Virus record (IMG/VR): IMGVR_UViG_3300030376_004364
Direction: 5' to 3' (one strand)
Origin: an uncultured virus (IMG/VR IMGVR_UViG_3300030376_004364)
Taxonomy: Duplodnaviria; Heunggongvirae; Uroviricota; Caudoviricetes; Crassvirales
Length of the DNA stretch: 64,000 nucleotides
Numbering within the stretch: position 1 is the stretch's first letter; each line of letters opens with the position of its first letter. Positions 22,796 to 53,016 of this stretch are shown here, piece by piece. Position numbers and translations under genes: made by a program. The notes below the pieces were generated by a model. The model was not told where the DNA came from and made no database searches. It worked only from the letters and a program-made list of their open reading frames with translations.

Positions 22796-23617
22796 ATGGA
22801 AAATTACACTTTAACATATAGCGAAGCAGCACAAGGTTTCCCTTCTTTTTATTCTTACTTCCCTGAGATAATAAAAGGAATGAATCAATTCTTATATACC
22901 TTTAAAGGTGGTAACTTGTATAAGCATAATACAAATGAAACTAGAAATAATTTCTATGGTATTCAAGGTATCTCTGAATTAACAAGTATATTTAATGAGT
23001 CTCCTTTAGAAAATAAAAAGTTTAAAACTATTGCTTTAGAAAGCGATGACCCTTGGCAGGGCACATTTATTACTGATATCCAGACTACAGGATTTATAAA
23101 TGCAGATTTATCAAACCCTAGTAATCAGTACTACGAGAAGAAAGAAAATGATTGGTTTGCTTACATACGAAATAGTGGTAATGTTCCTGCTAATCTAGAC
23201 CAGTATGCTTTACGCTCACTAACTGGAATTGGTAACAGCACTTCATTTTTTATAGATGGACCAACTACAACTATTCTTTTTGAACCGCCTGTAAATATAG
23301 GTTCAATGTTATCTATAGGCGATGCTTTTTATTTTGGTGTAGCTAATGCTAGTGGTGATTTAGAACCTACTTTAGCAGGTGTTGTAACAACAGTTACATT
23401 TAGTAATATAGGTAATGTTTTGATAGAATTAGATAACACCGTAGCTGGAGTTGTACCTATTCCTAGTCAGACTGAATATTTTTTATACATTAAGAACTCT
23501 ATTGCTGAATCACAAGGAGTAATGGGACACTACTGTGAGTTTACATTAAGCAACGCATCAACGAGTGCTACAGAATTATTTGCAGTAAAAAGTGAGGCAT
23601 TCAAAAGTTTCCCTTAA
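22796..23617 (+). CDS. Tail protein, possibly the separated C-terminal part of the stabilisation protein
   Basis: YTLTYSE..GFPSFYSYFPE, RNNFYG, KFKTIALE and KENDWFAYI motifs. Confidence 0.55.
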   Translation: MENYTLTYSEAAQGFPSFYSYFPEIIKGMNQFLYTFKGGNLYKHNTNETRNNFYGIQGISELTSIFNESPLENKKFKTIALESDDPWQGTFITDIQTTGFINADLSNPSNQYYEKKENDWFAYIRNSGNVPANLDQYALRSLTGIGNSTSFFIDGPTTTILFEPPVNIGSMLSIGDAFYFGVANASGDLEPTLAGVVTTVTFSNIGNVLIELDNTVAGVVPIPSQTEYFLYIKNSIAESQGVMGHYCEFTLSNASTSATELFAVKSEAFKSFP

Positions 23618-35900: not shown

Positions 35901-36616
35901 AGGTTATGCAGAGCACTACTAATATCGCAAGAGATATCTCTAATAAGAAGAGACCACGTTCAAAGGACACTAGAGATTTAGCTTTGAACTTAGCGGTAGC
36001 CAACGTATTATTTGCAACTGCAGCTAACATAGCTAAGTTTGTTAAGGGAGATGATGAAGACAGGGAAACAGCTATGAAGAGTATTACTGAAGCAATGATG
36101 GGCTTAAATCTTATATATCAGATACCTTATGTAGGTTCTACGGTAAAAGATTTAGATATAGCTGGGCAAGCAATTTCTGCTGTTAAAGGAGAAGAATATA
36201 AGAAGAGTAGGATATACAAGAGTGATGTTGTAAACCCTTTAGCTAGTGTCATGCAACAGTACAGGAAGCTAACTAAGAATGATGAGAATAAACTTGTTGC
36301 TGCGGTAAGAACTCTTATAGAGATAACTATAGGAGCAAAGATGGACCCTTTCTTTGGTTTATATAATTATTTTGGAGGTGAAGAAGAGGATGTAGATGCA
36401 GCAATGTATGATGTACTTGGTATATCTCCATCTTACCGACCTAAGAACGAGGGTGGTAAAAAATCTAAAGTAGATAAAAGGCGTTTAAAGAAAATGCTTC
36501 CTGATTTATATGGACCTGACAGTAGCTTAGAGCCTATAAAACAAATAAAAAAAGACCAGAGAAAAATGAGAAGAGATATCCAGAAAGAAATAGACGCAGC
36601 TTTGGGTCTTGATTAA
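26978..36616 (+). CDS. Giant internal virion / polyvalent protein (3212 aa)
   Basis: Last late gene; Gly/Ala-rich membrane-like segment, HDFFGH...ETRGQNSWVNF domain, zincin-like AIHEMGH. Confidence 0.7.
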   Translation: MDKLKTLFDVLTRDGYYTKSFEEFQTQFQDSSYKDKVFNVVSRDGLFTKSKDDFLNMYQVTEVEPVKKKEVTESISETGSSDSFEPLEGDELIAPEGVADVDERDTRGESPLSSQDFQVQDERQQAAQQVDNTQLQQAPVPVTPEEQQTAVDTREAFEQQRAIDMENYLAQQKIEQDLIAEKTQENQQLLLKSDGFKADLDIINEELIAQAEQPVVEELTRRFTKYGLTFEKTGIGDAMVVSNFDNSKTVRINLDPNLSSDEILESKKLKDFIIDNSLELYEDNDSLEFDNQAEKARSIRNNHLINPDGSFSTVKFTSYEEDGKYKVIPTLFPKDINFYGTIADDWMELEFDDAKQVAEERGEVFSFETAEEAELFAEGGWKDIHTTDALGKSLYSEIGKNYKFETARYDEYLRVRDEIDFIESQIADFDNDFLDELTDEQKKKYGNLYVEGILRDDASQILKELKEKEDALYSEVNTEELIEMREKFDLALNKKYDMLAQEAAMANGETKVYEDALNEQSISLFGVELKDLTDIIPKDEQDALLLDEFKTQAALINSEKVHAARKYENALTFYDRKFDKSITEEYETGIAAVYGEIQKGLKDGNASEVILQLSTGMPFDMQSLDINNPEDVRKAAEMIASLKGGSQKGKQGRQMARWNRAVGFRESLDAFLRNPDELALSLAANSISMMLPYGTELVAGSTVVGAGTGAVMGGVPGVVTGGIRGMRAGMAATNFAMEYTNEFFDAMQANGYDVLDPDDVVEAINNDKVWATAKERGLKRGIPIAVMDYISSGLVGRVFQAGSVAAKGRRLALAAAERGIVDPAMEGAGEAAAQLVADGTLDGKEIGGEIIGGFGANSPTAAVNTMFNIRSKSNIELANRLTDINFIAFEKTSDTRISKWTNNMLRLGKINADQAQRIQKNLGLSKDADNLVNFGMSKNKPKNKRVKARLMELLSAKEEYSADVNRREIFGQKIKDINAEIAYLVENKTLAPDSQRAKIESITSPGVEVSDVRAGVSEYIIDGKSYTKEAFLKEIGKRTAKQMSKFNGKVVNDEEVSKQLAEKIETKTDTDAVQITETESVDARQQAAIGEGVGTGVPTTETTELETTETQEIINTKTNEETNTEIAAGNRLFNEPLQAATEIETRVKERTGIDTPKGERITKLDEARSKRISDAYEKQESNPNDPEVKESYAALIDETIAQYEDILADGYVIEMSNTEYKSSADMISDLRDNKNMRVFSTEEGFGTEGITDADRAANPMLAPTKFKDKNGKPLLVNDVFRFVHDFFGHSKEGNSFGPIGEENAWDVHSRMYSPLARRAMTTETRGQNSWVNFSGINDKAFKIRDEARALRKEGKFEEAEAKVKEAYDMMKFAQQKVMLLPEEFTLLPEETPEGIALAEEVADLEATLDDTDSKVDFKLKEESTQEGFVDTKEIVEAMSKVEEGAIIESQTEFKETSPTAPKVDVQELNSRTDNPLPVVDYEVIDGIPTMFSISDQLTTGNTINPYTGNVITNLKGGFGFNGIKGHEKLAWASIDNNTVKGQISTALRIYNNNKELYKNWWAANPQYNGLVPMSIVKMESKSILSNEAVVRVMADNLTSFPKDKRVEALEVFRERLETKKLRLEEAVKTGIGLKGKPVSKKTIKVYRDQVEAIKDVQKMDKKIKAKTIDALLTPNALLQLKAITSVNVITGNIGYGAPNKPTKAAVTPGDYKKNPIAKALLGDNASLEEKSKLHLGAITDVITEPQLKKTPIRSVFLITGIDVLNPGIEKTVHPNYPVGPRGKVIGVIEQPKSMLELFPSAYNNAVLGKAQEDAGKNRKRSDKLRLSETIPVGMGLVNKEFQGTIVGVNEEARLLDFMNRSFPFVNISTDQSTMNQLIESPDVTTYLKGDSVVYGMTKDGNIFINKEVHDSKSELYNTAIHEMGHIWTKHLSLTPKGKKIYKRGAELVQQTELYKRLLKRFDGDVNKATEEAMATLIGNRGESVVNASLQQKIKDWITAVWDYVRTEFKLSKDLSTQEIQNLTMDEFLGTALADIFSGKPVKLSDAQLKTFSSELKEAMFKSDESMTSIIDKGRANGFSDASIKQVLKGRGFKVADIRDAMEVKVDAFTQLPDAFGNVEGGINEGMQLFTEVRQKLSKFITPDKTMSEVRQKAMDLMKDNPIYKAQPEQTQMELLTDFDKTLNTRANVKVQKEIAAIKNNLRQRKVGAKNIKSAQIQLKNYIRKALPKSKTYTQAQINKLIARVNKSTVDTFEADTEYIMKIVDQQKAKMKKALVKDMLKLVKAKAMTAFTKSGKRRAKGLSKEGTSYFKAVKQILTADVDTLNKIQEDLQNESTEISNLIEKQQDGQKLTQKEQAKVNQALAFDTFGDVSNMSLEEVQDLMQQLKDVRAQSIATFKSRRLARVEANKRMKEQADAQIKETNPMLFDEDGNVLNTNERGAIKNEILSHFRKFEIGKGLSTLGKQMKFSNAKSLIQDMKQMFQHLGTLSNLLDRVTQGKDFFTKNVYDALNRMDDINNGGLFQTQKKLDDIANTIPGITKGVKQVYSKLNTGVHELKLKRSDTGREYTDIFNADELMRIYALSLNDTQRQKLEAQGITPDVIENIKKIIGPEAVEFTDKTVNFLSNEYYESVNDVYSYVNDVNLGYVNNYFPTSTIQKETTKKMITEGDFSGVFNAESAPAFKERVDMKSDVDLHAGTFTNVLNNHVDTMEKYKAYALGTQRLNALFQIDSVSVLLQEMGVKNAMKNAVNFAINPDSGKDSSLNPSLISKLQTNFTGFALAFKAIQILKQATSFVNAYSDYSYFPKDSKVPRAVKAAVDLPMFMFDGARVVLSLAKDLFGKKGAIREAMEISPTFRKRLAQGLEGDVVGLESGRQTLKKTALTGDKIKKAQAAFKTAAASPTVIGDVLGVMGYMINYKRNIANGMSKAEAVKAFNDYNATQQSRRGTDKIPIQRNNNVFVRAFTMFGSTLFLQMNKVMQSTTNIARDISNKKRPRSKDTRDLALNLAVANVLFATAANIAKFVKGDDEDRETAMKSITEAMMGLNLIYQIPYVGSTVKDLDIAGQAISAVKGEEYKKSRIYKSDVVNPLASVMQQYRKLTKNDENKLVAAVRTLIEITIGAKMDPFFGLYNYFGGEEEDVDAAMYDVLGISPSYRPKNEGGKKSKVDKRRLKKMLPDLYGPDSSLEPIKQIKKDQRKMRRDIQKEIDAALGLD

Positions 36617-43146: not shown

Positions 43147-43172
43147 AAAAAAAGGGGTGCTGTAAACACCCC
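43147..43172 (-). terminator. Intrinsic terminator after the SSB-like gene
   Basis: GGGGTG/CACCCC stem followed by T7 on the minus strand. Confidence 0.8.
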
Positions 43173-43183
43173 ATTTAGTCATA

Positions 43184-43465
43184 CTAAAAAGGAAGGTCTT
43201 CCGACTCCTCAGCTTTAGTTTTTACAGGCTCATCTGTTTTCTTTGCTTCGAATGTATCCACAAACATATACGGATTTCCTGCTCGGCTCTCTTTGATTCC
43301 TAAATTTACCCAACCATTTTTTTGATTGGCTTTAAGAAAGCTAATAGCATCGTCTACTTTGATACTTAAACTTCCCAGAACAAAGTCTGGAGCATTTGCA
43401 TGCTTTCTTCTAAATTTAAAACCATCAGCAAAAACTATTTCTTCTTTGGTGTTTGAATTATTCAT
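43184..43465 (-). CDS. Putative single-stranded DNA-binding protein
   Basis: 93 aa with acidic EESEDLPF C-terminus, in the recombination cluster. Confidence 0.65.
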   Translation of the reverse strand: MNNSNTKEEIVFADGFKFRRKHANAPDFVLGSLSIKVDDAISFLKANQKNGWVNLGIKESRAGNPYMFVDTFEAKKTDEPVKTKAEESEDLPF

Positions 43466-43622
43466 ACTCTTTATCTATTTTTATTTGTTGCTCCAATGTT
43501 TCCATAATAGCTAACATAATATCTTGTTTAGCTTTAAGCGATTTGCAGACCATCGGAACTTCAATCCACATAACACTTTCTTTTCTAAAATATTTCTTTA
43601 AAAACTTTTTAAACCTCTTCAT
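43458..43622 (-). CDS. Small hypothetical protein (54 aa)
   Basis: Manually translated MKRFKKFLKKYFRKESVMWIEVP...; fills the gap and overlaps both neighbours. Confidence 0.5.
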   Translation of the reverse strand: MKRFKKFLKKYFRKESVMWIEVPMVCKSLKAKQDIMLAIMETLEQQIKIDKEYE

Positions 43623-44340
43623 AAAAGTAGAATTGGTCTAGGTCCTCTGAAGGATTGTCTCCATAAAACTTTCTGTATTGCTCAACAGCCTTGATTACTT
43701 TCTGCTCGCCTCTCTCTAGGCTCTCGTCACTAACAGGATACATCCCTAGCATACGAGTAGTCTTATCTATGACTAGAAATACTAATGGCTTATTGAAAAG
43801 TTCTTGATAGATATAAGCTTGGCTATCGTAATTAAAGTCACGAACACTCCATTTAAACTTATCTATAGCTCCAGTAGTTTTGATGTCTATAAGGTGCTCA
43901 CTTCCAACTATATCTGCCTTACCTTTCCACATCTCTCCATGTATTTCTTTAACCATAGGTACTTCATACTGAACATCCTGCTCCTGTATCAAGGCTCTAA
44001 ATTCATCTACGTTGAGCATCGTCTCAACTAAGTTCTCCATCATAATCTTTTCCTTAGTCAGAAGTCCAATCTTTAAATTGTTCTCCTCCAGAAATGAATC
44101 ATAAGCCTTACCTCTCCTAGTTGCTAGGTCGATATGAGGTATAGCCTGTGCCTTCTCCGGCTCTAGAATTAACTGATGAAAATATCTTCCCACTAAAAAG
44201 TTTTTGTTATCCTCCTGTACTGCGTTAAAGTTCTTAGGATTCTTCAGTAGGTCTCCTATATTGGAATTGGAAAGATAGTTCTTCCCAACTCCGTTATAGT
44301 ATTCGTGGTCGTCTTGTAGTAGTTTGATGATGTCTTTCAT
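43609..44340 (-). CDS. PD-(D/E)xK exonuclease (RecE/DUF3799-like)
   Basis: LSNS, GRYFH..ILEP, KGKADI, IDIKTT and YDSQAYIY motifs. Confidence 0.85.
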   Translation of the reverse strand: MKDIIKLLQDDHEYYNGVGKNYLSNSNIGDLLKNPKNFNAVQEDNKNFLVGRYFHQLILEPEKAQAIPHIDLATRRGKAYDSFLEENNLKIGLLTKEKIMMENLVETMLNVDEFRALIQEQDVQYEVPMVKEIHGEMWKGKADIVGSEHLIDIKTTGAIDKFKWSVRDFNYDSQAYIYQELFNKPLVFLVIDKTTRMLGMYPVSDESLERGEQKVIKAVEQYRKFYGDNPSEDLDQFYFYEEV

Positions 44341-44342
44341 AC

Positions 44343-44954
44343 CTATAAAGTTTTAGCTATTTCTTTCTTAACTACGCCTGTCATACTATATTTTTTAAGA
44401 AGATTTTCTCCAATAGTCTTAAGACCCAGCTCTTTATTATCAACTACATACTTCATAACCTTATCCCAATTATCATCGCCTACATTTAAAACTATTTTAG
44501 TTGGTTTCTTTGGAGCTGGTTTCTTTGGAGCTGGTTTCTTAGCTACTACTTTACTTTCTCCATTTGGAAGGTCCTCTCCAGCATAAACATAAAGACCTAG
44601 ACCTTGTCTAGCTATAGCCTTAGTTAAACTTCTCTGAATAGTTTTATTCACATCTACAGAGGTAATCTTATCTACTAGAATAGAATTGTTTCTGAAGTCC
44701 ATAACCGGAAGATATTCAATATGCTCCTGTCCTTCGATTGTTACGCCTGTTTTTACCCAAGCTGACCTACCATCTGTATGGTAGAACATACCATTAATAT
44801 CCTCATAGATAGTATATGTAGCTGAAGGATAATGCTTCTTAACCTCTGCCCAAGCCCAAGCCCAAGATAGATACGTTAGGTTATTCTTTTTCTCTACTTT
44901 GTCATTTACATTGATAGAGTTCAATGTCTCGAATACTGATTTTGATTTACTCAT
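44343..44954 (-). CDS. Sak-like ssDNA annealing protein (DUF1071 type)
   Basis: VEKKNNLTYLSWAWAW, LPVMDFRN, NKTIQRSLTKAIARQGLGLYVYAGEDLP. Confidence 0.88.
   Translation of the reverse strand: MSKSKSVFETLNSINVNDKVEKKNNLTYLSWAWAWAEVKKHYPSATYTIYEDINGMFYHTDGRSAWVKTGVTIEGQEHIEYLPVMDFRNNSILVDKITSVDVNKTIQRSLTKAIARQGLGLYVYAGEDLPNGESKVVAKKPAPKKPAPKKPTKIVLNVGDDNWDKVMKYVVDNKELGLKTIGENLLKKYSMTGVVKKEIAKTL
44503..44540. repeat. 15-bp coding tandem repeat (KKPAP linker)
   Basis: GGTTTCTTTGGAGCT about 2.5 copies inside the Sak-like gene. Confidence 0.8.
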
Positions 44955-45357
44955 AACTTTCTGTTTTAATTTTAGTGTTAATTTTATTATACATCTTAAT
45001 AATTCTTTCTCTATGTGTCTTGAGGTGTTTGATTTGCTTTGGGTTTTGTTTTGTGTTCATCTCGTCCTTTATCTTATCCTCTATCTTCTGTAGTTTTAGA
45101 TGATAAGTTTCGATACAAACATTATAAACTCCAAGCCTCCATCCTTTCTCTTTGAAATATTCCTTCTGCTGGTCTGTGATTATACGATAGTAATCTCCAC
45201 CAAGAGCTGTGTTATGAATTGTAATTATTCCAGACTCTTCATCTAAACTAATTTTACATCCATATAGTATCCTAGCTTGATAGCTTTCGCCATCGAGATT
45301 AATTGCTTTATAATCTTCTACAGCCTGTGAGAATATATCTTCTAAAGTGTAACGCAT
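44947..45357 (-). CDS. Hypothetical protein
   Basis: 136-aa ORF overlapping its neighbours. Confidence 0.7.
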   Translation of the reverse strand: MRYTLEDIFSQAVEDYKAINLDGESYQARILYGCKISLDEESGIITIHNTALGGDYYRIITDQQKEYFKEKGWRLGVYNVCIETYHLKLQKIEDKIKDEMNTKQNPKQIKHLKTHRERIIKMYNKINTKIKTESYE

Positions 45358-45644
45358 TCGCTAATATTATTAATAATTTTTTTATAATCAGAGTCTTTTT
45401 TAGCTCTGTCTTTTACCTGTTTTATTCCATGAATAATGGATGAATGACTTATCTTGTATCCGTTATCCTCCATAAATTGTTGGATGTATCGTATACGCAT
45501 AGGTCGTTTATGGCACAGGTAATAAAGTAGCTGTCTAGCATCTACTATGTCTCGTCTTTTATCTTTTGTAAAAAGTTCACTGGGTAATAGAGAGTATGCA
45601 TCAGATACCTTTGATACATACCCATTAAAAATTGGATAGTGCAT
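45342..45644 (-). CDS. Second DnaA domain IV-like HTH protein
   Basis: KDKRRDIVDARQLLYYL...SHSSIIHGIKQV. Confidence 0.7.
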   Translation of the reverse strand: MHYPIFNGYVSKVSDAYSLLPSELFTKDKRRDIVDARQLLYYLCHKRPMRIRYIQQFMEDNGYKISHSSIIHGIKQVKDRAKKDSDYKKIINNISECVTL

Positions 45645-45712: not shown

Positions 45713-45853
45713 TTACACATAAAATTTTAATTCTGACTCTAGATATTCAATCCTTTTTTGTAAGGTGTTTATCTTTTTTTGTAGAGCATCGACTCTGTAT
45801 TGGTGTTCAATTAAAACTTGGTCTGTTGTCTGATTACTAAAATTTGTTTTCAT
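45713..45853 (-). CDS. Small coiled-coil protein (46 aa)
   Basis: MKTNFSNQTTDQVLIEHQYRVDALQKKINTLQKRIEYLESELKFYV. Confidence 0.6.
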   Translation of the reverse strand: MKTNFSNQTTDQVLIEHQYRVDALQKKINTLQKRIEYLESELKFYV

Positions 45854-45881
45854 AATTTATTTATTTTTAAAGGTTATTAAT

Positions 45882-45901
45882 GGGAGGCTTTTATACCTCC
45901 C
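45882..45901. terminator. Intergenic hairpin, possible terminator
   Basis: GGGAGG/CCTCCC stem near the 3' end of the early operon. Confidence 0.5.
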
Positions 45902-45909
45902 TTTAGTTT

Positions 45910-46140
45910 TTATTTTACTAATTGTATAAAAGTGTCTTTTCCTCTTGTGTTCCAGCCATCGCCAGTTTCCTCTACTACTGTTGTTAGCACTTTTAAGTCA
46001 AGTAGTAAAGCTACAGAGTCTACTACTTCTGTTTTGCTAATTCCCAACTTACCACCTCTCCATATTAGGTTTTCAAGATGTCTTACATTTCGTTTTTGCA
46101 TTAAGTTTAAAAGTGATTTGATGTTTTTGTCGTGGTACAT
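45910..46140 (-). CDS. Early hypothetical protein
   Basis: 76 aa, starts 30 nt after the predicted HHR1 cleavage site. Confidence 0.7.
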   Translation of the reverse strand: MYHDKNIKSLLNLMQKRNVRHLENLIWRGGKLGISKTEVVDSVALLLDLKVLTTVVEETGDGWNTRGKDTFIQLVK

Positions 46141-46163
46141 AATTTTTTGATTTTTAGTGTTTA

Positions 46164-46227
46164 AGATTAAGACCTCTATGCTTCACAGCATTGAGGTTTC
46201 GTCCTAACAGGACTCATCAGTTAATCT
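46164..46227 (-). ncRNA. Type I hammerhead ribozyme HHR1
   Basis: AGAUUAA CUGAUGA GUCC-UGUUA-GGAC GAAA CCUC-AAUGCUGUGAAGCAUA-GAGG UC^UUAAUCU; GUC triplet, cut between 46171 and 46170. Confidence 0.95.
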
Positions 46228-46228
46228 G

Positions 46229-46501
46229 TTAGCAGAAAAGTGATTCAGGCTCGTTCTCCTGTAGAGTACGAATCTTTTTAACCCACATAAACCAGTTGCC
46301 TGTCTTTATAGCTAAACCAAGTAGATACTCCACATCATCAATATCAGAAAAAAGGTATTCATCTATAGAGTCTCTGAGTCCGTTTAGTTGCCAGTACATC
46401 TCATCGTTGTACTCATAGCCTCCAAACTCAGTGAATATCTCCCAGCATTCATCATAAATTTGTTTACATTGCTTTCGCATAATCTCTAATGTAGTCTCCA
46501 T
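46229..46501 (-). CDS. Early hypothetical protein
   Basis: 90 aa, acidic; stop 1 nt before HHR1. Confidence 0.7.
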   Translation of the reverse strand: METTLEIMRKQCKQIYDECWEIFTEFGGYEYNDEMYWQLNGLRDSIDEYLFSDIDDVEYLLGLAIKTGNWFMWVKKIRTLQENEPESLFC

Positions 46502-46502
46502 A

Positions 46503-46868
46503 TTATATAGTATTATACATTTCTTTAAAATCTTTATAGTTTCTAAGAATTACTTTCTGTATGCCCTCTCCCTCAGAGTTTAAGGCTTCCTCTTTACGAC
46601 TCGCAGTTAGTCTCTTGATATCATTATCTCTCTTGTACTGGTCTAAAAACTTTTTCTCAGTCCTCTCTATCAATCCCCATATTAAGTTCTGCATACAGGT
46701 TCTAAATTGGTAGGACTCCCAAGTCCTGTTATAGTATCTTACCTTGCCTTCTTCGACAAAGTTTCCATCTATGTATAGCTCTGATTTGTGTCCCCAAGAC
46801 CTACTTGTTGACCACCCACGACTTATGATGTCGTAGGTTCTTCCGTTAATTGTTCTAGTGTGTTTCAT
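46503..46868 (-). CDS. Early hypothetical protein
   Basis: 121 aa with YYNRTWESYQF motif. Confidence 0.75.
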   Translation of the reverse strand: MKHTRTINGRTYDIISRGWSTSRSWGHKSELYIDGNFVEEGKVRYYNRTWESYQFRTCMQNLIWGLIERTEKKFLDQYKRDNDIKRLTASRKEEALNSEGEGIQKVILRNYKDFKEMYNTI

Positions 46869-46901
46869 AATCTTATTTATTATTTTATAGGTTGTTTAGT
46901 T

Positions 46902-47228
46902 TTACTGATTTATTAAATTTACTATTTTACTTGCATATCCTCTACTATTCCAAGAGTAGTAAGTCTCAGTTGAAATAGCATTTAAGTTAATTGAAGGAAT
47001 ATTCAATTTTCCACCATTGTATTCTCTTGTGCCACCACCAGTAGTGTATCGTAGACCAGCACAAGATGTGTACTTATATTCACTCCAATCATAATAATAG
47101 TTTTTTATGTTTAATTCGTTTAATAGTCTCGATACCATTTTTAGTTGTGGCATTCTAGCACCTTTAACATCATTAGCTTTTAATTCTAGTCTTTTTAGTG
47201 TATTTTCTGATTTTTTAGTTAGTTTCAT
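46902..47228 (-). CDS. Early hypothetical protein
   Basis: ATG at 47228 (MKLTKKSEN) carries the shared AAUAAAUAAGAUU leader. Confidence 0.7.
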   Translation of the reverse strand: MKLTKKSENTLKRLELKANDVKGARMPQLKMVSRLLNELNIKNYYYDWSEYKYTSCAGLRYTTGGGTREYNGGKLNIPSINLNAISTETYYSWNSRGYASKIVNLINQ

Positions 47229-47232
47229 AATC

Positions 47233-47382
47233 TTATTTATTATTAAATTCATATCTGTAGAAATCTGCAACATCTATTAATTTTTGTATTAAATCATTTT
47301 TGCTATAATATATTAATTCTGATGCATCATATTCATCTGTAAGTAATCGTTCTAATTCTGTTATTATTTCTGTTCGTTTCAT
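47233..47382 (-). CDS. Early hypothetical protein (49 aa)
   Basis: MKRTEIITELERLLTDEYDASELIYIIAKND...; same leader. Confidence 0.65.
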   Translation of the reverse strand: MKRTEIITELERLLTDEYDASELIYYSKNDLIQKLIDVADFYRYEFNNK

Positions 47383-47394
47383 AATCTTATTTAT

Positions 47395-47673
47395 TTAGTA
47401 TGCTCTCGAAGGAAGCATTTGGTTTAAATCATAATCTTCTCCCAGCTCTTGCGAGAAGTATCTGCTGAGGTCATCTGCTAACTTCGTTAGCTCAGGATTG
47501 CCATACCAATCTTTGATAGTACAATCGTTCTGAACACTACCTAGCATCCCACCACCAAGATAGTTGCAGTATGCAGTCATCTTTTGGTCTTTGTAGCCAT
47601 AAGGCGTTAAACTAATTTCAACCCCACCACCTCGTGATGTGATTCGTTCTCTTAAGATTTCAAATTGTTTCAT
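47395..47673 (-). CDS. Early hypothetical protein
   Basis: 92 aa, starts 21 nt after the HHR2 cleavage site. Confidence 0.75.
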   Translation of the reverse strand: MKQFEILRERITSRGGGVEISLTPYGYKDQKMTAYCNYLGGGMLGSVQNDCTIKDWYGNPELTKLADDLSRYFSQELGEDYDLNQMLPSRAY

Positions 47674-47687
47674 AATATATAATTTTT

Positions 47688-47754
47688 AGATTAAGACAGG
47701 TATGCAATTAGACTGCAAACCTGTTTCGACCTGTGAGGTCTCGTCAGTTAATCT
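47688..47754 (-). ncRNA. Type I hammerhead ribozyme HHR2
   Basis: AGAUUAA CUGACGA GACCU-CAC-AGGUC GAAA CAGG-UUUGCAGUCUAAUUGCAUA-CCUG UC^UUAAUCU; cut between 47695 and 47694. Confidence 0.95.
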
Positions 47755-48194
47755 TCGTACTCATAGCCTTCCAATTCTAAAGCATACTCCATATCTTCAC
47801 GTAGTTTCTCGTACACATCATCCCAAAGACCAGCCATAGCCTCATCAATCCAGTCGTAGTCTAGGTCATCAATGTAAATATGGATATCATCTTTGTCACA
47901 CTCTCTTATAAATTGCTCTAGCCTTTCCCCTAAATCGCTGTCGTAGTAGTGTACATCCTCCTCAATATTGTATCTGTCATAAGGTGGAACGATAGCTACC
48001 CATAACTCATAGCCATCAGCTGTCGTTTGAGAGTAGATTGCAAAGTCCGGAGAGTTGTAGTCATCCGTTAGCTTAAAATCAAAGTGCAATTTAATGTTGT
48101 TGACCTGTACTTCAGTTCCATTGTACCACTCCCCAATACCTGTCTTTTCTAGTTTTTCAGTAATTAGTTCTTCAGTTAATTTTTTGATAATCAT
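47748..48194 (-). CDS. Early, highly acidic hypothetical protein
   Basis: 148 aa, D/E-rich; stop codon lies in HHR2 stem I. Confidence 0.75.
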   Translation of the reverse strand: MIIKKLTEELITEKLEKTGIGEWYNGTEVQVNNIKLHFDFKLTDDYNSPDFAIYSQTTADGYELWVAIVPPYDRYNIEEDVHYYDSDLGERLEQFIRECDKDDIHIYIDDLDYDWIDEAMAGLWDDVYEKLREDMEYALELEGYEYED

Positions 48195-48219
48195 AATTAA
48201 ATTTTTATGTCTTTCGACT

Positions 48220-48275
48220 GGTTAAGAGCCAGTATAAATACTGGCTTTCGGATAATAAATCCTCATCAGTTAACC
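48220..48275 (-). ncRNA. Type I hammerhead ribozyme HHR3
   Basis: GGUUAA CUGAUGA GGAU-UUAUU-AUCC GAAA GCCAGUA-UUUA-UACUGGC UC^UUAACC; CUC triplet, compensatory change in stem I; cut between 48226 and 48225. Confidence 0.93.
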
Positions 48276-48277
48276 TG

Positions 48278-48463
48278 TTAACTTAGCAGTTCAAATTCAT
48301 CTACAAAGTAATGTACACCATTAAACTTGGTGCACCGGTTCTTCTCTAGTTCCTTACAGCATCTGATAAGTTCTGAGTAGGAGATACTATCTCTTGTTCT
48401 GTTCTGAGTATAAGCCATATCAATCATAGCCATTGCCTCGCCTAGTGTTTTCGCTACATACAT
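48278..48463 (-). CDS. Early hypothetical protein
   Basis: 61 aa; stop 2 nt before HHR3. Confidence 0.65.
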   Translation of the reverse strand: MYVAKTLGEAMAMIDMAYTQNRTRDSISYSELIRCCKELEKNRCTKFNGVHYFVDEFELLS

Positions 48464-48474
48464 AATTATAGGTT

Positions 48475-48633
48475 CTAATCGTTAGTGAAAATTTCATCCA
48501 GCAGATAGCCCTTCTTTCTCTCCAGTAAAGAGATGAAGTTATCTACGTGTTTCTCATCGTTAAATTGTCTCGTGATAATCCAATCTGTACCGAAGTCAGT
48601 CTTGAATTTTAGTGTTACCATAGTTGATTTCAT
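48475..48633 (-). CDS. Early hypothetical protein (52 aa)
   Basis: MKSTMVTLKFKTDFGTDWIITRQFNDEKHVDNFISLLERKKGYLLDEIFTND; starts 21 nt after the HHR4 cut. Confidence 0.7.
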   Translation of the reverse strand: MKSTMVTLKFKTDFGTDWIITRQFNDEKHVDNFISLLERKKGYLLDEIFTND

Positions 48634-48647
48634 AATATTAAATTTTA

Positions 48648-48701
48648 AGATTAAGACTGCCTCTCGGCAGTTTCGGTCTATCAGACCTCATCAGTTAATC
48701 T
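48648..48701 (-). ncRNA. Type I hammerhead ribozyme HHR4
   Basis: AGAUUAA CUGAUGA GGUCU-GAU-AGACC GAAA CUGCC-GAGA-GGCAG UC^UUAAUCU; cut between 48655 and 48654. Confidence 0.96.
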
Positions 48702-48991
48702 AGGTTTTTATTCTTTTTGTAATCTTCATACTGATGTACCTCGTCATCAAGCCAAGTTTCTGGGACTCCTACGACATCAACACCTTCGTAAGTAAGACAC
48801 CAAAGATTTGCGTCCTCATCATCATAATCCTCATAGCTGTTATATACAAAACCTTTCTGTACTAAGCTACCTAATATTCCAGCTCTGCTACGAGTTTTTA
48901 CATTTTCTTGAGTGAAGTCTGAGTGACCTGGCTCATTTTGTTCAAATTTAATTTCTTTTAATAGTTCTAATTCTTTTGATGTTATTTTCAT
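48695..48991 (-). CDS. Early hypothetical protein (possible winged helix)
   Basis: 98 aa; SRAGILGSLVQKGFV...LTYEG; flanked by HHR5 and HHR4. Confidence 0.7.
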   Translation of the reverse strand: MKITSKELELLKEIKFEQNEPGHSDFTQENVKTRSRAGILGSLVQKGFVYNSYEDYDDEDANLWCLTYEGVDVVGVPETWLDDEVHQYEDYKKNKNLD

Positions 48992-49005
48992 AATATTAAA
49001 TTTTT

Positions 49006-49061
49006 AGATTAAGACCACCGGTAAAGGTGGTTTCGTCCTTCCAGGACTCATCAGTTAATCT
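49006..49061 (-). ncRNA. Type I hammerhead ribozyme HHR5
   Basis: AGAUUAA CUGAUGA GUCCU-GGA-AGGAC GAAA CCACC-UUUACC-GGUGG UC^UUAAUCU; cut between 49013 and 49012. Confidence 0.96.
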
Positions 49062-49255
49062 ATATGCTCTTCCAGTGCTGATAAAACGTCATACATCATG
49101 TGCCGTTGCGTTGCATTGTGAATTACATTCTTTTCGATTAGCTTGTACATAAGAAATCCTAGGTCTTTAGCATTCAAGCTATCGACTTGGTCATTCCATT
49201 CTAAGCCCATCATATCCCATTGGGTATCATCCATTAAGTGTTCAATTTTGTTCAT
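49055..49255 (-). CDS. Early hypothetical protein
   Basis: 66 aa; stop codon lies in HHR5 stem I. Confidence 0.7.
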   Translation of the reverse strand: MNKIEHLMDDTQWDMMGLEWNDQVDSLNAKDLGFLMYKLIEKNVIHNATQRHMMYDVLSALEEHID

Positions 49256-49257
49256 AA

Positions 49258-49413
49258 TTAATAGTTTTTAGTTAGATACGAATTAAGAGCCATCTGCTGA
49301 AATATAGTACCTTTAAATTCTTTTAATATTTGTATTGCCCCCTCATCTTCCATAACTATTGAAGGGTTTACGCTATGCTCATTACAGAGCCAAATAAAAT
49401 CTTTTTTGTTCAT
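49258..49413 (-). CDS. Early hypothetical protein (51 aa)
   Basis: MNKKDFIWLCNEHSVNPSIVMEDEGAIQILKEF... Confidence 0.65.
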   Translation of the reverse strand: MNKKDFIWLCNEHSVNPSIVMEDEGAIQILKEFKGTIFQQMALNSYLTKNY

Positions 49414-49434
49414 AATTTCTAGTTGTTTAATTGT

Positions 49435-49557
49435 TCACAAAAAGTCTATTTCGTTTTGCAAATTATCTATTAATTCTAGTACTTTCATACATTTGTTTTT
49501 ATCGTAATTAGACATAATATAACTATATATTTCATCTAAATTGTTCTGTATATTCAT
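49435..49557 (-). CDS. Early hypothetical protein (40 aa)
   Basis: MNIQNNLDEIYSYIMSNYDKNKCMKVLELIDNLQNEIDFL. Confidence 0.55.
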   Translation of the reverse strand: MNIQNNLDEIYSYIMSNYDKNKCMKVLELIDNLQNEIDFL

Positions 49558-49569
49558 ATCTTTATTTAT

Positions 49570-49722
49570 TTAGTTATTAATAGTGTAGTTATACTGCGTC
49601 TTTCTAGGTAGCATCCACCTTCCGTTATCTTGGATGTAAGGCCTTCCGTATTGGTCAAACTGGATGTCGTTAATCTGCTCTTCATTGTAGAAGTACAGGG
49701 CTAATTTCTGTAATTTGTTCAT
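49570..49722 (-). CDS. Early hypothetical protein (50 aa)
   Basis: MNKLQKLALYFYNEEQINDIQFDQYGRPYIQDNGRWMLPRKTQYNYTINN. Confidence 0.6.
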   Translation of the reverse strand: MNKLQKLALYFYNEEQINDIQFDQYGRPYIQDNGRWMLPRKTQYNYTINN

Positions 49723-49730
49723 TGTCAAAA

Positions 49731-49820
49731 TGCCTGTGTTTATCGCAAAGGACTTTATGCTAGGTTAGATGTGGTGGGCAATTTCGCTTTGCCTTTCGCT
49801 GTCTACAGCCACCACAGGTC
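49731..49820 (-). ncRNA. Candidate structured intergenic RNA (three-way junction), class unknown
   Basis: UGUGGUG [GCUG-UAGA-CAGC] GAAA [GGCAA-AGCGAAA-UUGCC] CACCACA, plus an alternative CCUGUG/CACAGG pairing. Confidence 0.5.
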
Positions 49821-49823
49821 TTG

Positions 49824-49967
49824 TTAATCAATATATCCCCAAATGCCCTTCTGCTGTAGCTTTCCGAGTATATAATGCATCTCTGCTTGTGTCTTACCTT
49901 CGAAGTCACTCTCGCAAAGTGATAGTGTATGAGCGATTATTTCTAGTTGGTCTTTCGTGAATTTCAT
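49824..49967 (-). CDS. Early hypothetical protein (47 aa)
   Basis: MKFTKDQLEIIAHTLSLCESDFEGKTQAEMHYILGKLQQKGIWGYID; ATGA overlap with the upstream stop. Confidence 0.65.
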   Translation of the reverse strand: MKFTKDQLEIIAHTLSLCESDFEGKTQAEMHYILGKLQQKGIWGYID

Positions 49968-50269
49968 AGCTCTATCTCGTTATTTGAAAGCCCTATGGTT
50001 AGAGCATGTCGGTTAGCACCATCAGCCCTGTTCCAAGCCGTTTTAAATTCACCTGTAGCTACAGCTGACATAAATCCTCCAGTAGTAGCTAGAATCCCTC
50101 GTTTCTTTGCTAGGTCAATGTCCTCGTCCAGTAAGCTAGTAGCTGTGCCTACACAAGCACCATTGTCAGAGTAGTTAGCGATTGCTACTAGCATCGTGTA
50201 GTTAGAGTAATTAACTCCTTCCGGTAGGTATCCCTTTGGATATCCTGATTTCAATTCAAATTTGTTCAT
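49964..50269 (-). CDS. First gene of the early operon, hypothetical
   Basis: 101 aa; GGFMSAVATGEFKTAWNRADGAN motif. Confidence 0.75.
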   Translation of the reverse strand: MNKFELKSGYPKGYLPEGVNYSNYTMLVAIANYSDNGACVGTATSLLDEDIDLAKKRGILATTGGFMSAVATGEFKTAWNRADGANRHALTIGLSNNEIEL

Positions 50270-50290
50270 AATATTTAATTTAAAAGTTAG

Positions 50291-50340
50291 CTACCGGTAC
50301 TAGTATTGCTCTAGCTAGCCTGTCGTTCAGATACCGGTAA
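50291..50340 (-). ncRNA. Candidate structured 5' leader RNA
   Basis: UUACCGGUAU/GUACCGGUAG stem enclosing CUG-AACGA-CAG and CUAG-AGCAAUA-CUAG hairpins. Confidence 0.45.
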
Positions 50341-50344
50341 TTTG

Positions 50345-50900
50345 TTTGTTTGTTCACACAACTTACGCCACAACTCGTTGATTATCAGTGAGATAAAGTT
50401 AGTAAATTATGCTAACTTGCTGATTATCAGTCTGTTATGTCTCAAAATGTCAAAGAGCTGTCTATCTCCGGTGTAAAAATAGTCTAAATCTAGATATCTC
50501 ACAAGGTTTTTTTTACTTTTTTTTCGCTGTCTCTGTAATCCCAAGTATAACAAGGCTTTACAGAGGGTCTGTTCCCTATTATTTATTTGGGCTCGCTTCA
50601 CTGGAGCAGAGGCTACCCTACTTCTCGTAGCTTGTAACAAGTTTAACTTGCGTTAAAGGTAGGGGGGATAGGGGTTGAGGGGATAGGTTAACTGGAGGGA
50701 AGGTATGTGTAATGTGGGATGCATAGGGGCTGAGGTACTGGTGGTACTAGGGCTGAGAGCTGTAGATAAAAACGGCAAAAAATCAGGAATAAAAATCCGG
50801 AATCGACACCCCCCCTGTCAATATTTTTTTGCGTTTCCGTAGAGGGCATGTGTGCGTGTGATGGGGTAGAACCCAAATACTAGATATATCTAAAAAAAAA
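50345..50900. other. Divergent non-coding region; candidate genome terminus/packaging and early promoter region
   Basis: Strand-switch point with G-run cluster, C7 tract, A/T tracts and two TGATTATCAG palindromes. Confidence 0.5.
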
Positions 50901-50926: not shown

Positions 50927-51109
50927 ATGGATTTTGGAGATTACACAATAAGAAATGGAAGGCTAATTAACAATGCTCCTGATTTGGAGAGTGGTATAAG
51001 TAAAGCCGCACGTTTAAGACAAGAGGTTAAGCGTGGTAAACAAGTTAGAATTATAGCAGAGGCTAATGAGTTAGCTAATGCCAACATAAATTTATTCAAG
51101 AAACTATAG
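50927..51109 (+). CDS. Hypothetical protein
   Basis: 60 aa, preceded by TATCTTTA (near -7 consensus) and followed by a terminator. Confidence 0.7.
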   Translation: MDFGDYTIRNGRLINNAPDLESGISKAARLRQEVKRGKQVRIIAEANELANANINLFKKL

Positions 51110-51155
51110 TTTGTTTTAGTTAGTGTTTGATGATTGACTAGTTTTAGTCAGAAAG

Positions 51156-51181
51156 AAGAGGGGTAGTTCCCTCTTTTTTTT
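51156..51181 (+). terminator. Intrinsic terminator
   Basis: AAGAGGG/CCCTCTT stem followed by a T run. Confidence 0.8.
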
Positions 51182-51186
51182 ATATT

Positions 51187-51414: not shown

Positions 51415-53016
51415 ATGAATCAAGGATTTTCTCCAAAGGAGCTTCGCTTCGGAAATGATGGAAGGGATAAGTTAATATCCGGCATCACCCAATTATCAAA
51501 TGCAGTTAAGAGTACATTAGGACCACAGGGTAACACAGTACTTATAGAATCACAGGAACATATAGGAGGTATTACTGTCACCAAGGATGGTGTTACGGTT
51601 GCTAAGTCTATTAGTTTATTAGACCCAGTCGAGAACCTTGCGGTTCGTATGATGAAGGAGGCTGCTGACAAGACAGCTACTACTGCTGGTGATGGTACGA
51701 CTACTGCGATAGTATTAACGGAAGCATTAGTAAAGAAGGGAACAGAGCTTATTACAGACAATGTAAATCGTACGGAGGTATTGCGTAGTATGCATGAGCT
51801 CACGAAAGATGTTATAAAGGGTTTGAAGGAGGACTCTAAAAAATTAAGCCAGCGAAAGATGAAGGACGTTGCTATTATCTCTGCCAACAACGACAAGGAG
51901 TTAGGAAGTACGATAGCGGATGTGTATAAGGCTGTTGGTAAGGATGGTGTTGTTACTGTTGAGAAGTCACAGAGCAGCGACACGTATTATGAGACTACGA
52001 AAGGAATCAAGGTAGACAGGGGATATTCTAGTCCTTTGTTTATAAACGACCAGAAGAAAGATGAGTGTGTACTAGAGGATGTTCATATTCTGGTATCTGA
52101 TGCTGAGATAAGTAATATACTTCAGATTGAGGGTGTATTAAAACCAATCATCCAGCAGAACAAGAGATTACTTATTATAGCACCTACGACAACCAATGTT
52201 ATAAACACGTTGGCTGCCAATGTGATGAAGAACAATTTAAAGATATGTAACATAGCACCTCCGAACTTTGGTTACAAGCAGCATGAGCTTATGCAGGATA
52301 TAGCCTATACGGTTGGAGCTACATATTTTTCTGAAAAGACAGGGGATGACCTCAGCATTATTAATGCAGAAGACTTGGGTCACGCTGCCAAGGTGATAGT
52401 TGGTCGTGGCTCAACAGTCATCCTAAAGGATGATTCTTCAGACCAAGAGGCAATTGACGGAAGGGTAGCTGAGTTAAAGGGTGCTCATGAGATAGCTAAG
52501 ACAAAAACTGAGCGTGATTTTATAATGTCTAGGATAGCATCACTAACAGGAGGTATTGGTGTAATATATGTAGGAGGGAATACGGACCTAGAGCAGAAGG
52601 AATTGTATGACAGGGTTGATGATGCGGTATGTGCGGTACGCTCAGCACTAGAGGAGGGCATACTTCCTGGTGGTGGCATGGCTCTGTATCAGTTGGGTTA
52701 TGAAATTTGTGAGCCTTGCTCACCCACAGCTGATGAGAAGATTGCAGCGGAGATTATGAAGTATGCATTAGAGGCTCCTGCTAGACAGATTATAGCTAAC
52801 GGAGGTAAAGACTTTAGTAAGATATATCCTAAGCCACCAATTGTAGGTGAGGGTTATGATTTAAAAAACGACAAGCATGGCAACTTAATTAATATGGGTG
52901 TAATAGACCCATTAAAAGTTACACGAACTGCATTACAGAATGCAGTGTCTGTAGCCACAACGATATTATCTACTAATGCTATTGTAACGATGGCACGTTC
53001 ATACGAAACTAAATAA
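51415..53016 (+). CDS. groEL: Phage-encoded chaperonin GroEL
   Basis: STLGPQG, TKDGVTVAKSI, AGDGTTTA, DRVDDA, EEGILPGGG and GVIDPLKVTR motifs. Confidence 0.97.
   Translation: MNQGFSPKELRFGNDGRDKLISGITQLSNAVKSTLGPQGNTVLIESQEHIGGITVTKDGVTVAKSISLLDPVENLAVRMMKEAADKTATTAGDGTTTAIVLTEALVKKGTELITDNVNRTEVLRSMHELTKDVIKGLKEDSKKLSQRKMKDVAIISANNDKELGSTIADVYKAVGKDGVVTVEKSQSSDTYYETTKGIKVDRGYSSPLFINDQKKDECVLEDVHILVSDAEISNILQIEGVLKPIIQQNKRLLIIAPTTTNVINTLAANVMKNNLKICNIAPPNFGYKQHELMQDIAYTVGATYFSEKTGDDLSIINAEDLGHAAKVIVGRGSTVILKDDSSDQEAIDGRVAELKGAHEIAKTKTERDFIMSRIASLTGGIGVIYVGGNTDLEQKELYDRVDDAVCAVRSALEEGILPGGGMALYQLGYEICEPCSPTADEKIAAEIMKYALEAPARQIIANGGKDFSKIYPKPPIVGEGYDLKNDKHGNLINMGVIDPLKVTRTALQNAVSVATTILSTNAIVTMARSYETK

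Follow-up and report, generated by a model that had tools for sequence, protein, structure and literature searches.

The hammerhead array and its gene neighbourhood

The window (the whole 64-kb stretch of DNA analysed, IMG/VR record IMGVR_UViG_3300030376_004364) comes from a lytic-looking marine podovirus of Bacteroidota hosts with crAss-type domains in its muzzle protein; it was recognised as a phage by its terminase, portal, muzzle and Sak proteins. Five minus-strand type I hammerhead motifs form an array within 2.9 kb, embedded in a hypervariable run of small genes and followed downstream by a conserved module. The bit scores given below are those of model R1, which was built from the five elements themselves.

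45713..50269, minus strand: hypervariable run of about 17 small function-unassigned genes (40-148 aa) holding the array
49006..49061, minus strand: HH1, type I hammerhead (71.2 bits); predicted cut 3' of C 49013, new 5' end 49012; TAA stop of the 66-aa upstream ORF (49057-49055) within stem I; leader 21 nt, following ATG at 48991
48648..48701, minus strand: HH2, type I hammerhead (73.1 bits); predicted cut 3' of C 48655, new 5' end 48654; TAA stop of the 98-aa upstream ORF within stem I; leader 21 nt, following ATG at 48633
48219..48276, minus strand: HH3, type I hammerhead (69.3 bits); predicted cut 3' of C 48226, new 5' end 48225; upstream stop at 48280-48278; leader 31 nt, following ATG at 48194
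47688..47754, minus strand: HH4, type I hammerhead (72.8 bits); predicted cut 3' of C 47695, new 5' end 47694; TAA stop of the 148-aa upstream ORF within stem I; leader 21 nt, following ATG at 47673
46164..46227, minus strand: HH5, type I hammerhead (76.2 bits); predicted cut 3' of C 46171, new 5' end 46170; upstream stop at 46231-46229; leader 30 nt, following ATG at 46140
43184..45644, minus strand: conserved downstream module, with homologues in 12-63 of 73 relatives' loci
44343-44954, minus strand: Sak-type annealing protein
43609-44340, minus strand: PDDEXK exonuclease
43154..43172, minus strand: terminator-like hairpin followed by a T-run, found by consensus scan only

The array is sense to the co-oriented small genes and lies upstream of recombination and replication genes. 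The downstream module comprises a DnaA-C-like HTH protein, a 136-aa ORF, the Sak-type annealing protein, the PDDEXK exonuclease and two small ORFs. The 20 minus-strand ORFs tested in the run and just above it (to 51099) have homologues in only 0-7 of the 73 relatives' loci each, and comparison of the flanked genes with PHROGs and Pfam yielded no function, the one match being a weak family of unknown function. The hairpin at 43154..43172 is possibly the end, or an attenuator, of the array-carrying transcript. Judging from its position only, the block would be an early one.

Core, fold and covariation of the five elements

All five copies contain the complete catalytic core, C3-U4-G5-A6-N7-G8-A9, G12-A13-A14, the A15.1-U16.1 pair and C17, which reads CUGA(U/C)GA ... 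GAAA ... U-C; at position 17 the hammerhead consensus admits any base but G, and the numbering used here agrees with the hammerhead rules quoted in the available text of Perreault et al. 2011 (PMC3088659). The order of the parts is that of type I (stem I 5' strand, core, hairpin II, GAAA, hairpin III, UC, stem I 3' strand), with helix I open, both RNA ends exiting through it, and helices II and III closed by loops. Four copies have GUC as their cleavage triplet and HH3 has CUC, the two triplets named in the preliminary description. HH4 has C at N7 (CUGACGA) and a long stem III.

The five elements were claimed to lie sense to the genes, at the junction of a stop codon and the next start, with the stop preceding the element. 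Orientation and junction position hold. The placement of the stop holds for HH3 and HH5, where it precedes the stem I TTAA by 8 nt, and not for HH1, HH2 and HH4, in which the upstream TAA is itself part of the 5' stem I strand (GAT TAA CTGATGAG). The leaders between the predicted cuts and the next ATG are A/U-rich and without a Shine-Dalgarno sequence. Cuts after C17 are predicted to give fragments of 358, 429, 531 and 1524 nt, sizes identical to those proposed earlier, and these units carry 1, 2, 1 and 5 genes.

The pattern CTGAYGA..CGAAA..TCTTAA has seven matches, corresponding to five distinct minus-strand sites, and none in each of 100 dinucleotide shuffles. R1 likewise recovers exactly five elements in the window (next match 11.8 bits, E 1.8), in agreement with the number first reported. 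A sixth, degenerate hammerhead was considered at 49745-49832 (GATTAAC, a long hairpin and TCTAACC) and rejected: it is without the core, is missed by R1 and by Rfam and has a folding z-score of -1.6.

Folded in isolation, each element adopts the hammerhead three-way junction as its minimum-energy structure (z-scores -2.1 to -4.0). The earlier observation that the stems vary in sequence yet pair is borne out by covariation among the five copies: 96.7% of the alignment cells are paired versus 26-42% with slid partners, and 9 of 18 pairs, distributed over all three stems, are changed on both sides. HH3, whose stem I is GGUUAA/UUAACC, has the compensatory A-U to G-C change that had been pointed out in this stem, and in a natural strain variant of HH3 from a metagenome stem III is shortened by three base pairs through two matching 3-nt deletions. 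When the elements are folded together with 40 nt of flanking sequence at either end, stems II and III persist in the minimum-energy structure of all five copies and stem I in that of HH1 and HH4 only; in HH2 the core is paired with a CAUCAGU from upstream. By calculation, stem I pairing is weak, with duplex energies of -2.1 to -4.1 kcal/mol.

A subtype below the Rfam thresholds

The search with Rfam hammerhead models proposed in the preliminary description gave no family at its gathering score: at that score the whole window has zero matches, hammerhead families included. The best match is RF03152 (RAGATH-1-hammerhead), at HH5, with 29.5 bits versus a gathering score of 56.3, and RF00008 (22.3 versus 48.5), RF02275 (19.8 versus 52) and RF00163 (type I; 19.3 versus 34) also stay below theirs, the best sub-threshold scores being 29.5, 27.0, 22.3, 19.8 and 19.3 bits. 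In E-value mode the window gave sub-threshold hammerhead matches and noise only. Twister, pistol, hatchet, HDV-like ribozyme and tRNA were not found in the window.

These four families have the core and the three-helix junction in common with the array; RF03152 also shares the short open stem I and the long stem III, the RAGATH-1 upstream hairpin being not convincingly present in the array elements. The sub-threshold scores reflect the seed alignments of the models and not the catalytic core, and we assign the elements to no Rfam accession. Since none of 36 related elements in nine loci reaches an Rfam hammerhead threshold either, the subtype is missed by routine annotation, even in cultured Cellulophaga phages.

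Related elements mark gene junctions in many phages

Our own model detected 129 elements of the same subtype in 71 viral loci, and a strict-pattern scan of viral metagenomes returned at least 133 stretches; the type I subtype is abundant there, yet unannotated. The cultured Cellulophaga phages phi18:3 and phi19:3 have one element each, the lone copy of phi18:3 standing upstream of a block that includes ardA. Among the 73 relatives' loci, the survey of related phages that had been suggested yielded 32 elements, all of them sense to and upstream of the primase gene. In the alignment of the 129 elements, which was fitted to the model and is hence biased towards the structure, 89.7% of the cells are paired versus 25-39% with slid partners, and 468 cells are changed on both sides versus about 125 in shuffles.

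Every copy lies on one strand per source in all 72 sources with elements. A sense ORF ends in or just before stem I in 115 of 134 elements, the stop being the stem I UAA in 40 and the UGA of the CUGA core in 21, and a sense ATG follows downstream in 116 of the 134, at a median distance of 16 nt. Many phages share the motif with its covariation and orientation, and also the stereotyped placement at gene junctions.

The distribution of the copies is what may be expected of passengers, that is, active or semi-active hammerheads that travel with accessory cassettes, do little harm and bring no particular benefit by cutting. Relatives whose primases are 85-93% identical have anywhere between 0 and 10 copies (ten in the locus L139, none in L140 and L142 despite 6.6-8.6 kb of upstream sequence), and the closest named relative, MW202828.1 (primase 69% identical), is without such an element. 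The partner lacks a hammerhead in 14 of 50 orthologous junction pairs, therefore no single copy is indispensable. However, the position and orientation stereotyped in 115-116 of 134 elements, the core intact in almost all copies and the compensatory changes kept indicate purifying selection on the fold in an mRNA context, and we consider the passenger explanation unlikely.

Persistence of the hammerheads could also be explained if they were preferred DNA recombination junctions for cassette exchange. Joints of strain variants fall at hammerhead edges (47755 to 49068, with a side of 75; 48662 to 49025; 48702 to 49089; 49061 to 49558), loose ends of variants lie at 47754 and 48701, and 8 of the 15 joints listed are within 10 nt of an element; moreover, L139 has homologous genes in a different order, with hammerhead bodies re-assorted relative to the flanking genes. 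Most joints, however, have short sides (21-35 letters) and were found at a permissive 90% likeness, and one deletion (46861 to 47222, 23 shared letters) is mediated by a repeat other than a hammerhead. In a matched comparison, synteny breaks average 0.69 at hammerhead junctions (n=79) versus 0.65 at nearby junctions of small genes without a hammerhead (n=412; one-sided Mann-Whitney p=0.098), the two-direction count being 0.83 versus 0.76. The excess of breaks is not significant, and the idea that hammerheads are particular hot spots of recombination was rejected. The accessory region is mosaic throughout, and we deem exchange at preferred junctions quite improbable as the reason for their persistence.

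In naturally fast-cleaving ('extended') hammerheads, a tertiary contact of helix I with helix II elements supports activity at low Mg2+, and hammerheads without tertiary contacts of the loop II-flank type are slow at cellular Mg2+. A pseudoknot between loop II and the flanks shows no excess complementarity (mean 3.52 downstream and 3.55 upstream, versus 3.55 and 3.62 in permuted sets). The last base of loop II does covary with the base that immediately follows stem I on its 3' side, the two being A/U in 86, U/A in 14 and U/U in none of 111 elements; the U/A type belongs mostly to one clade, and the pair is also readable as two local helix extensions. The elements might be thought of mainly as structures rather than scissors, stable hairpin clusters that would protect 3' ends made by host RNases, insulate the translation of neighbouring genes or make the polymerase pause, and that would cleave slowly or only under certain conditions. 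In favour of this are the undetected contact of loop II with the flanks, the marginal state of stem I in the longer sequence context and the other hairpins that fill some junctions of the block (e.g., 50285-50350). A structural role alone, however, needs no invariant CUGANGA, GAAA and UH, which are conserved while the stems vary freely, and this makes it very unlikely in our opinion.

Proposed processing of the message

Intact type I cores, sense to co-oriented small genes, make the protein-free cutting of a polycistronic message the natural reading. We propose that the five elements are probably functional type I hammerheads in the sense transcript of the small accessory genes and split this message, a proposal built on their sequence. 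The RNA would fold into the three-way junction as the polymerase passes and would then cut itself after C17. The upstream piece would retain its stop codon, and its 3' end, which would bear a 2',3'-cyclic phosphate, would be formed by the compact ribozyme fold. The downstream piece would have a 5'-OH and would open with the short stem I strand UUAAUC, followed by the 21-31-nt A/U-rich leader before the next ATG. With only 6-7 mostly A-U pairs in stem I, the pieces should part quickly, which would make the cut effectively irreversible. The message would in this way be split into the units of 358, 429, 531 and 1524 nt and two ends, stability and translation being set for each piece separately.

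The near-identical stem I of all copies would also allow the 5' end of an excised segment to pair with the ribozyme at its own 3' end, and three of the four unit lengths (429, 531 and 1524) are divisible by 3, as might be expected if paired hammerheads excised segments that are then ligated to circles or spliced, as in viroid-like or retrozyme RNAs. We find this hardly credible: ordinary, stop-terminated ORFs are present in each unit, the ends would be kept together only by a very weak stem I, and RNA ligase, RtcB and reverse transcriptase were not seen among the 29 larger ORFs scanned. Circular or spliced products of such arrangements were sought by Perreault et al., and none are reported in the available text (PMC3088659).

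For the proposed splitting, cleavage in the cell, transcription as a single message, early timing and a benefit, which may consist in uncoupling neighbouring cassettes, are presumed. Weighing against the proposal are the sub-threshold Rfam scores, the undetected loop II-flank contact, the folds with flanks that keep stem I in HH1 and HH4 only, the lack of an element in MW202828.1 and the 14 partner junctions without a hammerhead. Promoters inside the block are possible, which also weighs against it; sigma-70-like sites are fewer than expected (46 versus 57 in shuffles) and the Bacteroidota -7 motif TANNTTTG is not enriched (96 versus 88). Metatranscriptome data gave one 157-nt contig at 49653-49806, which has no bearing on transcript ends, cleavage, strand or level, and, from the same run, four pieces of 31-44 nt near 44500; a second run gave nothing.

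Comparison with known systems

Operon-segmenting arrays had been suggested to be uncharacterised, a novelty claim that fails. According to the available text of Perreault et al. 2011 (PMC3088659), multiple hammerheads flank single genes or short blocks in prophages, their proposed role is to cut long phage transcripts into mRNAs the length of an operon or a gene, and polycistronic constructs of about 2 kb from three species give the expected products in vitro, one of them also in E. coli, a precedent that speaks for the splitting proposed here. The present array is a fresh example of this arrangement, known since 2011, and its subtype may already figure in the Perreault alignments. As in the clusters described there, several same-orientation hammerheads flank mostly function-unassigned phage genes, here with five copies in 2.9 kb bounding units of 1, 2, 1 and 5 genes. 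The gene ardA, found downstream of the phi18:3 copy, is also flanked by the published Agrobacterium triple arrangement (PMC3088659). The tested examples in the available text are triple arrangements from prophages of Clostridium, Azorhizobium and Agrobacterium (PMC3088659); unlike these, the present array belongs to a lytic-looking marine podovirus of Bacteroidota and repeats a single type I subtype five times (ten times in L139), the stop is often inside stem I or the core, and the downstream leader is without a Shine-Dalgarno sequence.

Type I hammerheads in the RNA genomes of eukaryotic viruses likewise combine a long helix III with the lack of an obvious loop-loop contact, and their cleavage site lies a few nucleotides before the start codon that follows. 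They reside in RNA genomes and are proposed to aid translation initiation, whereas the array described here is DNA-encoded in a bacterial virus. In phage T7, RNase III cuts the early polycistronic mRNA between cistrons into defined smaller mRNAs, the structured 3' ends of which are thought to be stabilising; there, a host protein enzyme recognises hairpins and leaves 5'-phosphate and 3'-OH ends. In the marine phage the RNA would cut itself, leaving 5'-OH and 2',3'-cyclic phosphate ends, so the T7 parallel is an analogy of outcome and not of family.

Significance for phage biology

For ribozyme biology the array is a well-formed further example that opens no new question. The role of intercistronic ribozymes for the phage was still called open in a 2019 review (PMC6765202), and our literature search found no paper combining Cellulophaga and hammerhead. 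For this role phi18:3 and phi19:3 provide a tractable cultured system. Bacteroidota are largely without Shine-Dalgarno-led initiation, and a role of cleavage in exposing 5'-proximal A-rich leaders thereby becomes testable.

Taken jointly, the results could be read to mean that the hammerhead is a portable gene-junction module that drives accessory-gene turnover, and that the A/U to U/A swap marks a tertiary pair; we put this forward tentatively, as a rather doubtful combination. If it were true, the module would unite stops in two frames (the stem I UAA and the core UGA), a self-cleavage site and a leader without Shine-Dalgarno sequence, and any accessory ORF placed between two copies would be terminated, freed as its own mRNA and translated without host RNases. 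The lineage-specific swap, which involves loop II and the base that follows stem I, would then mark a previously undescribed tertiary pair of the type I subtype, and gain, loss and re-assortment of the module would drive the turnover of early accessory genes across marine Bacteroidota phages.

Five hammerhead elements on the minus strand

The window holds five elements, numbered HH1 to HH5 in the sense direction, in each of which the parts follow the order stem I, CUGA(U/C)GA, hairpin II, GAAA, hairpin III, UC and stem I'.

49061-49006, minus strand, HH1, located from sequence
48701-48648, minus strand, HH2, located from sequence
48276-48219, minus strand, HH3, located from sequence
47754-47688, minus strand, HH4, located from sequence
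46227-46164, minus strand, HH5, located from sequence

This layout pattern matches the window at the five element sites only and has no match in any of 100 dinucleotide-preserving shuffles. The hammerhead core is complete at all positions in every copy, with GUC as the cleavage triplet in four and CUC in one; the C of HH4 at core position 7 stands at a position that is free to vary. The minimum-energy structure of each isolated element is a three-way junction. Among the five copies 96.7% of the cells are paired, versus 26-42% when the partners are slid, and 9 of the 18 pairs are changed on both sides, including the compensatory change in stem I of HH3 that the preliminary description had reported. 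Pattern, core, folds and covariation all agree that the five minus-strand hammerheads claimed there are real. R1, the covariance model derived from these copies, detects no sixth one in the window.

The predicted new 5' ends are 49012, 48654, 48225, 47694 and 46170, and the units (the RNA pieces between consecutive predicted cuts) measure 358, 429, 531 and 1524 nt, as originally calculated. The elements had also been placed between a stop codon and the next start. This is accurate downstream, where the next ATG follows each of the five cuts by 21-31 nt of A/U-rich leader, and inaccurate upstream for HH1, HH2 and HH4, where the TAA stop of the preceding gene falls within stem I (GAT TAA CTGATGAG); for HH3 and HH5 the stop codon precedes the stem I TTAA by 8 nt. 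The leaders between the cuts and the next ATGs contain no Shine-Dalgarno sequence. Stem I is short, its calculated duplexes are weak (-2.1 to -4.1 kcal/mol), and in longer context only two of the five copies retain it in the minimum-energy fold. In HH2 taken with 40-nt flanks (48608-48741, minus strand), a CAUCAGU in the upstream coding stretch is complementary to the core ACUGAUG, a pairing that displaces stem I in the minimum-energy fold; this complementarity could be due to chance or be a competing fold.

Rfam 15 was searched over the whole window in gathering-score and E-value modes. Nowhere in the window does a family attain its gathering score; the check by Rfam hammerhead models that the preliminary description had put forward yields sub-threshold scores.

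Best scores of Rfam hammerhead families in the window
RAGATH-1-hammerhead: 29.5 and 27.0 bits (gathering 56.3)
Hammerhead_3: 22.3 bits (gathering 48.5)
HH9: 19.8 bits (gathering 52)
Hammerhead_1: 19.3 bits (gathering 34)

Similarly, none of the 36 R1 matches in nine related loci passes a hammerhead threshold. Since Rfam provides sub-threshold scores only, we name the elements hammerheads from their defining core and helices, not from an Rfam accession.

The same subtype in other viruses

At least 133 stretches of IMG/VR match the exact pattern, and R1 (E ≤ 0.001) identified 129 elements in 71 non-overlapping loci from among the matches listed, with strong covariation of stems II and III. In all 72 sources (the 71 loci and the window) the copies within a source lie on a single strand; 43 sources have one copy, 13 two, 9 three, 3 four and 2 five, while one has seven and one nine. 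A sense ORF terminates within stem I or immediately upstream of it in 115 of 134 elements, the stop being the UAA of stem I in 40 and the UGA of CUGA in 21, and a sense ATG is found downstream in 116 (median 16 nt).

The survey of related phages called for in the preliminary description, carried out on 73 loci gathered through the primase (64-93% identity), reveals further elements in 14 loci, and all 32 of these R1 matches are in sense orientation and upstream of the primase. One of these relatives, L139, carries ten copies and some that are just as close have none; the closest named relative, MW202828.1, has no such element. Among cultured phages, phi18:3 and phi19:3 of Cellulophaga each carry a single element within the 18 kb examined, located in an unannotated spacer. 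Phage phi19:3 (NC_021789.1, our locus L210) also carries a pistol ribozyme (RF02679, 46.5 bits versus a gathering score of 34.5) at 10387-10454, on the same strand 1.3 kb downstream of the type I hammerhead, partly overlapping the annotated gp046 at its 3' end.

In 111 elements of the family alignments, the final loop II base and the nucleotide immediately 3' of stem I show covariation (A/U 86, U/A 14, A/G 8, A/A 3, U/U 0), which may hint at a tertiary pair. The U/A type is found in the window and in its close relatives L137, L138, L139 and L141, as well as at the loci L014 and L005, thus mostly within the window phage's own clade, and with this confinement few independent events would lie behind the swap. 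A pseudoknot-type tertiary contact was looked for and not found.

Genomic setting of the array

The window belongs to a tailed phage with terminase, portal, structural proteins and crAss-type muzzle domains, all encoded on the plus strand. Its protein relatives are from phages of Flavobacterium, Nonlabens, Polaribacter and Maribacter, and its DNA is present in marine metagenomes.

17399-21817, plus strand, ORF with crAss-type muzzle protein domains
22796-23617, plus strand, ORF with crAss-type muzzle protein domains
43172-43154, minus strand (sense strand of the block), terminator-like hairpin

The minus strand carries a gene block that spans about 50269 to 36987. It opens with about 17 small genes, for which no family matches were found and among which the array lies; these are followed by genes for a DnaA-C-like protein, a Sak annealing protein, a PDDEXK exonuclease, a primase/helicase, a helicase and an Mre11-like exonuclease. 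The placement upstream of the replication genes fits a presumably early array-bearing transcript. The first clear early gene starts with the ATG at 50269, and the roughly 600 nt that precede it (50290-50900, minus strand) seem to be non-coding and contain a C-rich tract. Within 51135-51185, a strong hairpin at about 51145-51175 (z = -4.7), with an A-run and a T-run on its sides, reads as the terminator of a plus-strand 60-aa ORF (50927-51109) or as one acting in both directions. Two GroEL-type chaperonin genes (51415-53016 and 60678-62216, both plus strand) have full-length matches to Cpn60_TCP1 and phrog_5725; the annotation of MW202828.1 lists groEL and a 10-kDa co-chaperonin.

The 3212-aa ORF at 26978-36616 (plus strand) weakly matches a single PHROG, whose function is unknown. 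CrAss-like phages have virion RNA polymerases, and if this ORF encoded one, that would matter for which polymerase reads the early block.

Variability of the array region

The array region is hypervariable: the 20 ORFs preceding a conserved six-gene module each have homologues in 0-7 of the 73 relatives' loci, versus 12-63 for the genes of the module, and L139 has a different gene order. In strain variants (metagenome contigs differing from the window) of two metagenomes, joints and divergence points fall at hammerhead edges, most of them short-sided and matched at 90% likeness. When matched junctions are compared, synteny breaks average 0.69 at hammerhead and 0.65 at neighbouring junctions (p=0.098), which is no significant excess (0.83 versus 0.76 with both directions counted), and a role of the hammerheads as drivers of gene shuffling is thus unsupported. 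The partner is without a hammerhead in 14 of 50 conserved junction pairs, hence hammerheads come and go.

Past the gene ending at 49824, the junction has GATTAAC, a long hairpin and TCTAACC, resembling the outer hammerhead parts. This stretch (49745-49832, minus strand) was rejected as a sixth hammerhead, as its catalytic core is missing, R1 and Rfam are blank and its fold z-score is -1.6; it may be a decayed copy. Inside the 1524-nt unit, the junctions at the gene starts 47382, 47228 and 46868 (minus strand) have AATAAATAAGATTATGAAAC in common in the hammerhead's place, and a strain variant lacks 46862-47221, with 23 letters common at the joint.

Proposed self-cleavage and earlier work

Co-transcriptional self-cleavage that would split the polycistronic message is the best reading of the array, and a plausible one, since the catalytic nucleotides are kept while the helices vary, orientation is strictly sense and the elements sit at gene junctions. 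Selection on the fold is supported by an HH3 variant of one metagenome, in which 3-nt deletions at 48229 and 48242 take out three paired positions of stem III. The reading is weakened by the failure to find a pseudoknot-type contact and by the loss of stem I in most longer folds; a weak, short stem I would favour product release.

According to Perreault et al. 2011 (PMC3088659), prophages carry multiple hammerheads on the flanks of single genes or short gene blocks, and these were suggested to convert long phage transcripts into operon- or gene-length mRNAs. Constructs of about 2 kb from three species gave the expected products in vitro, an Agrobacterium triple arrangement was cleaved in E. 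coli, and circular or spliced products were sought without success. A 2019 review (PMC6765202) takes up the same idea and regards the biological purpose as unsettled, and a 2026 paper (PMC13725137) states that bacteria and phages are known to contain type I hammerheads whose helix III is long. The prophage arrangements share both layout concept and proposed processing role with the window array; the novelty suggested for an operon-segmenting array therefore fails, and the concept behind the processing interpretation had already been published. The only novelty is one of membership, namely an array with five copies of a type I subtype that escapes the Rfam models, carried by a marine Bacteroidota phage.
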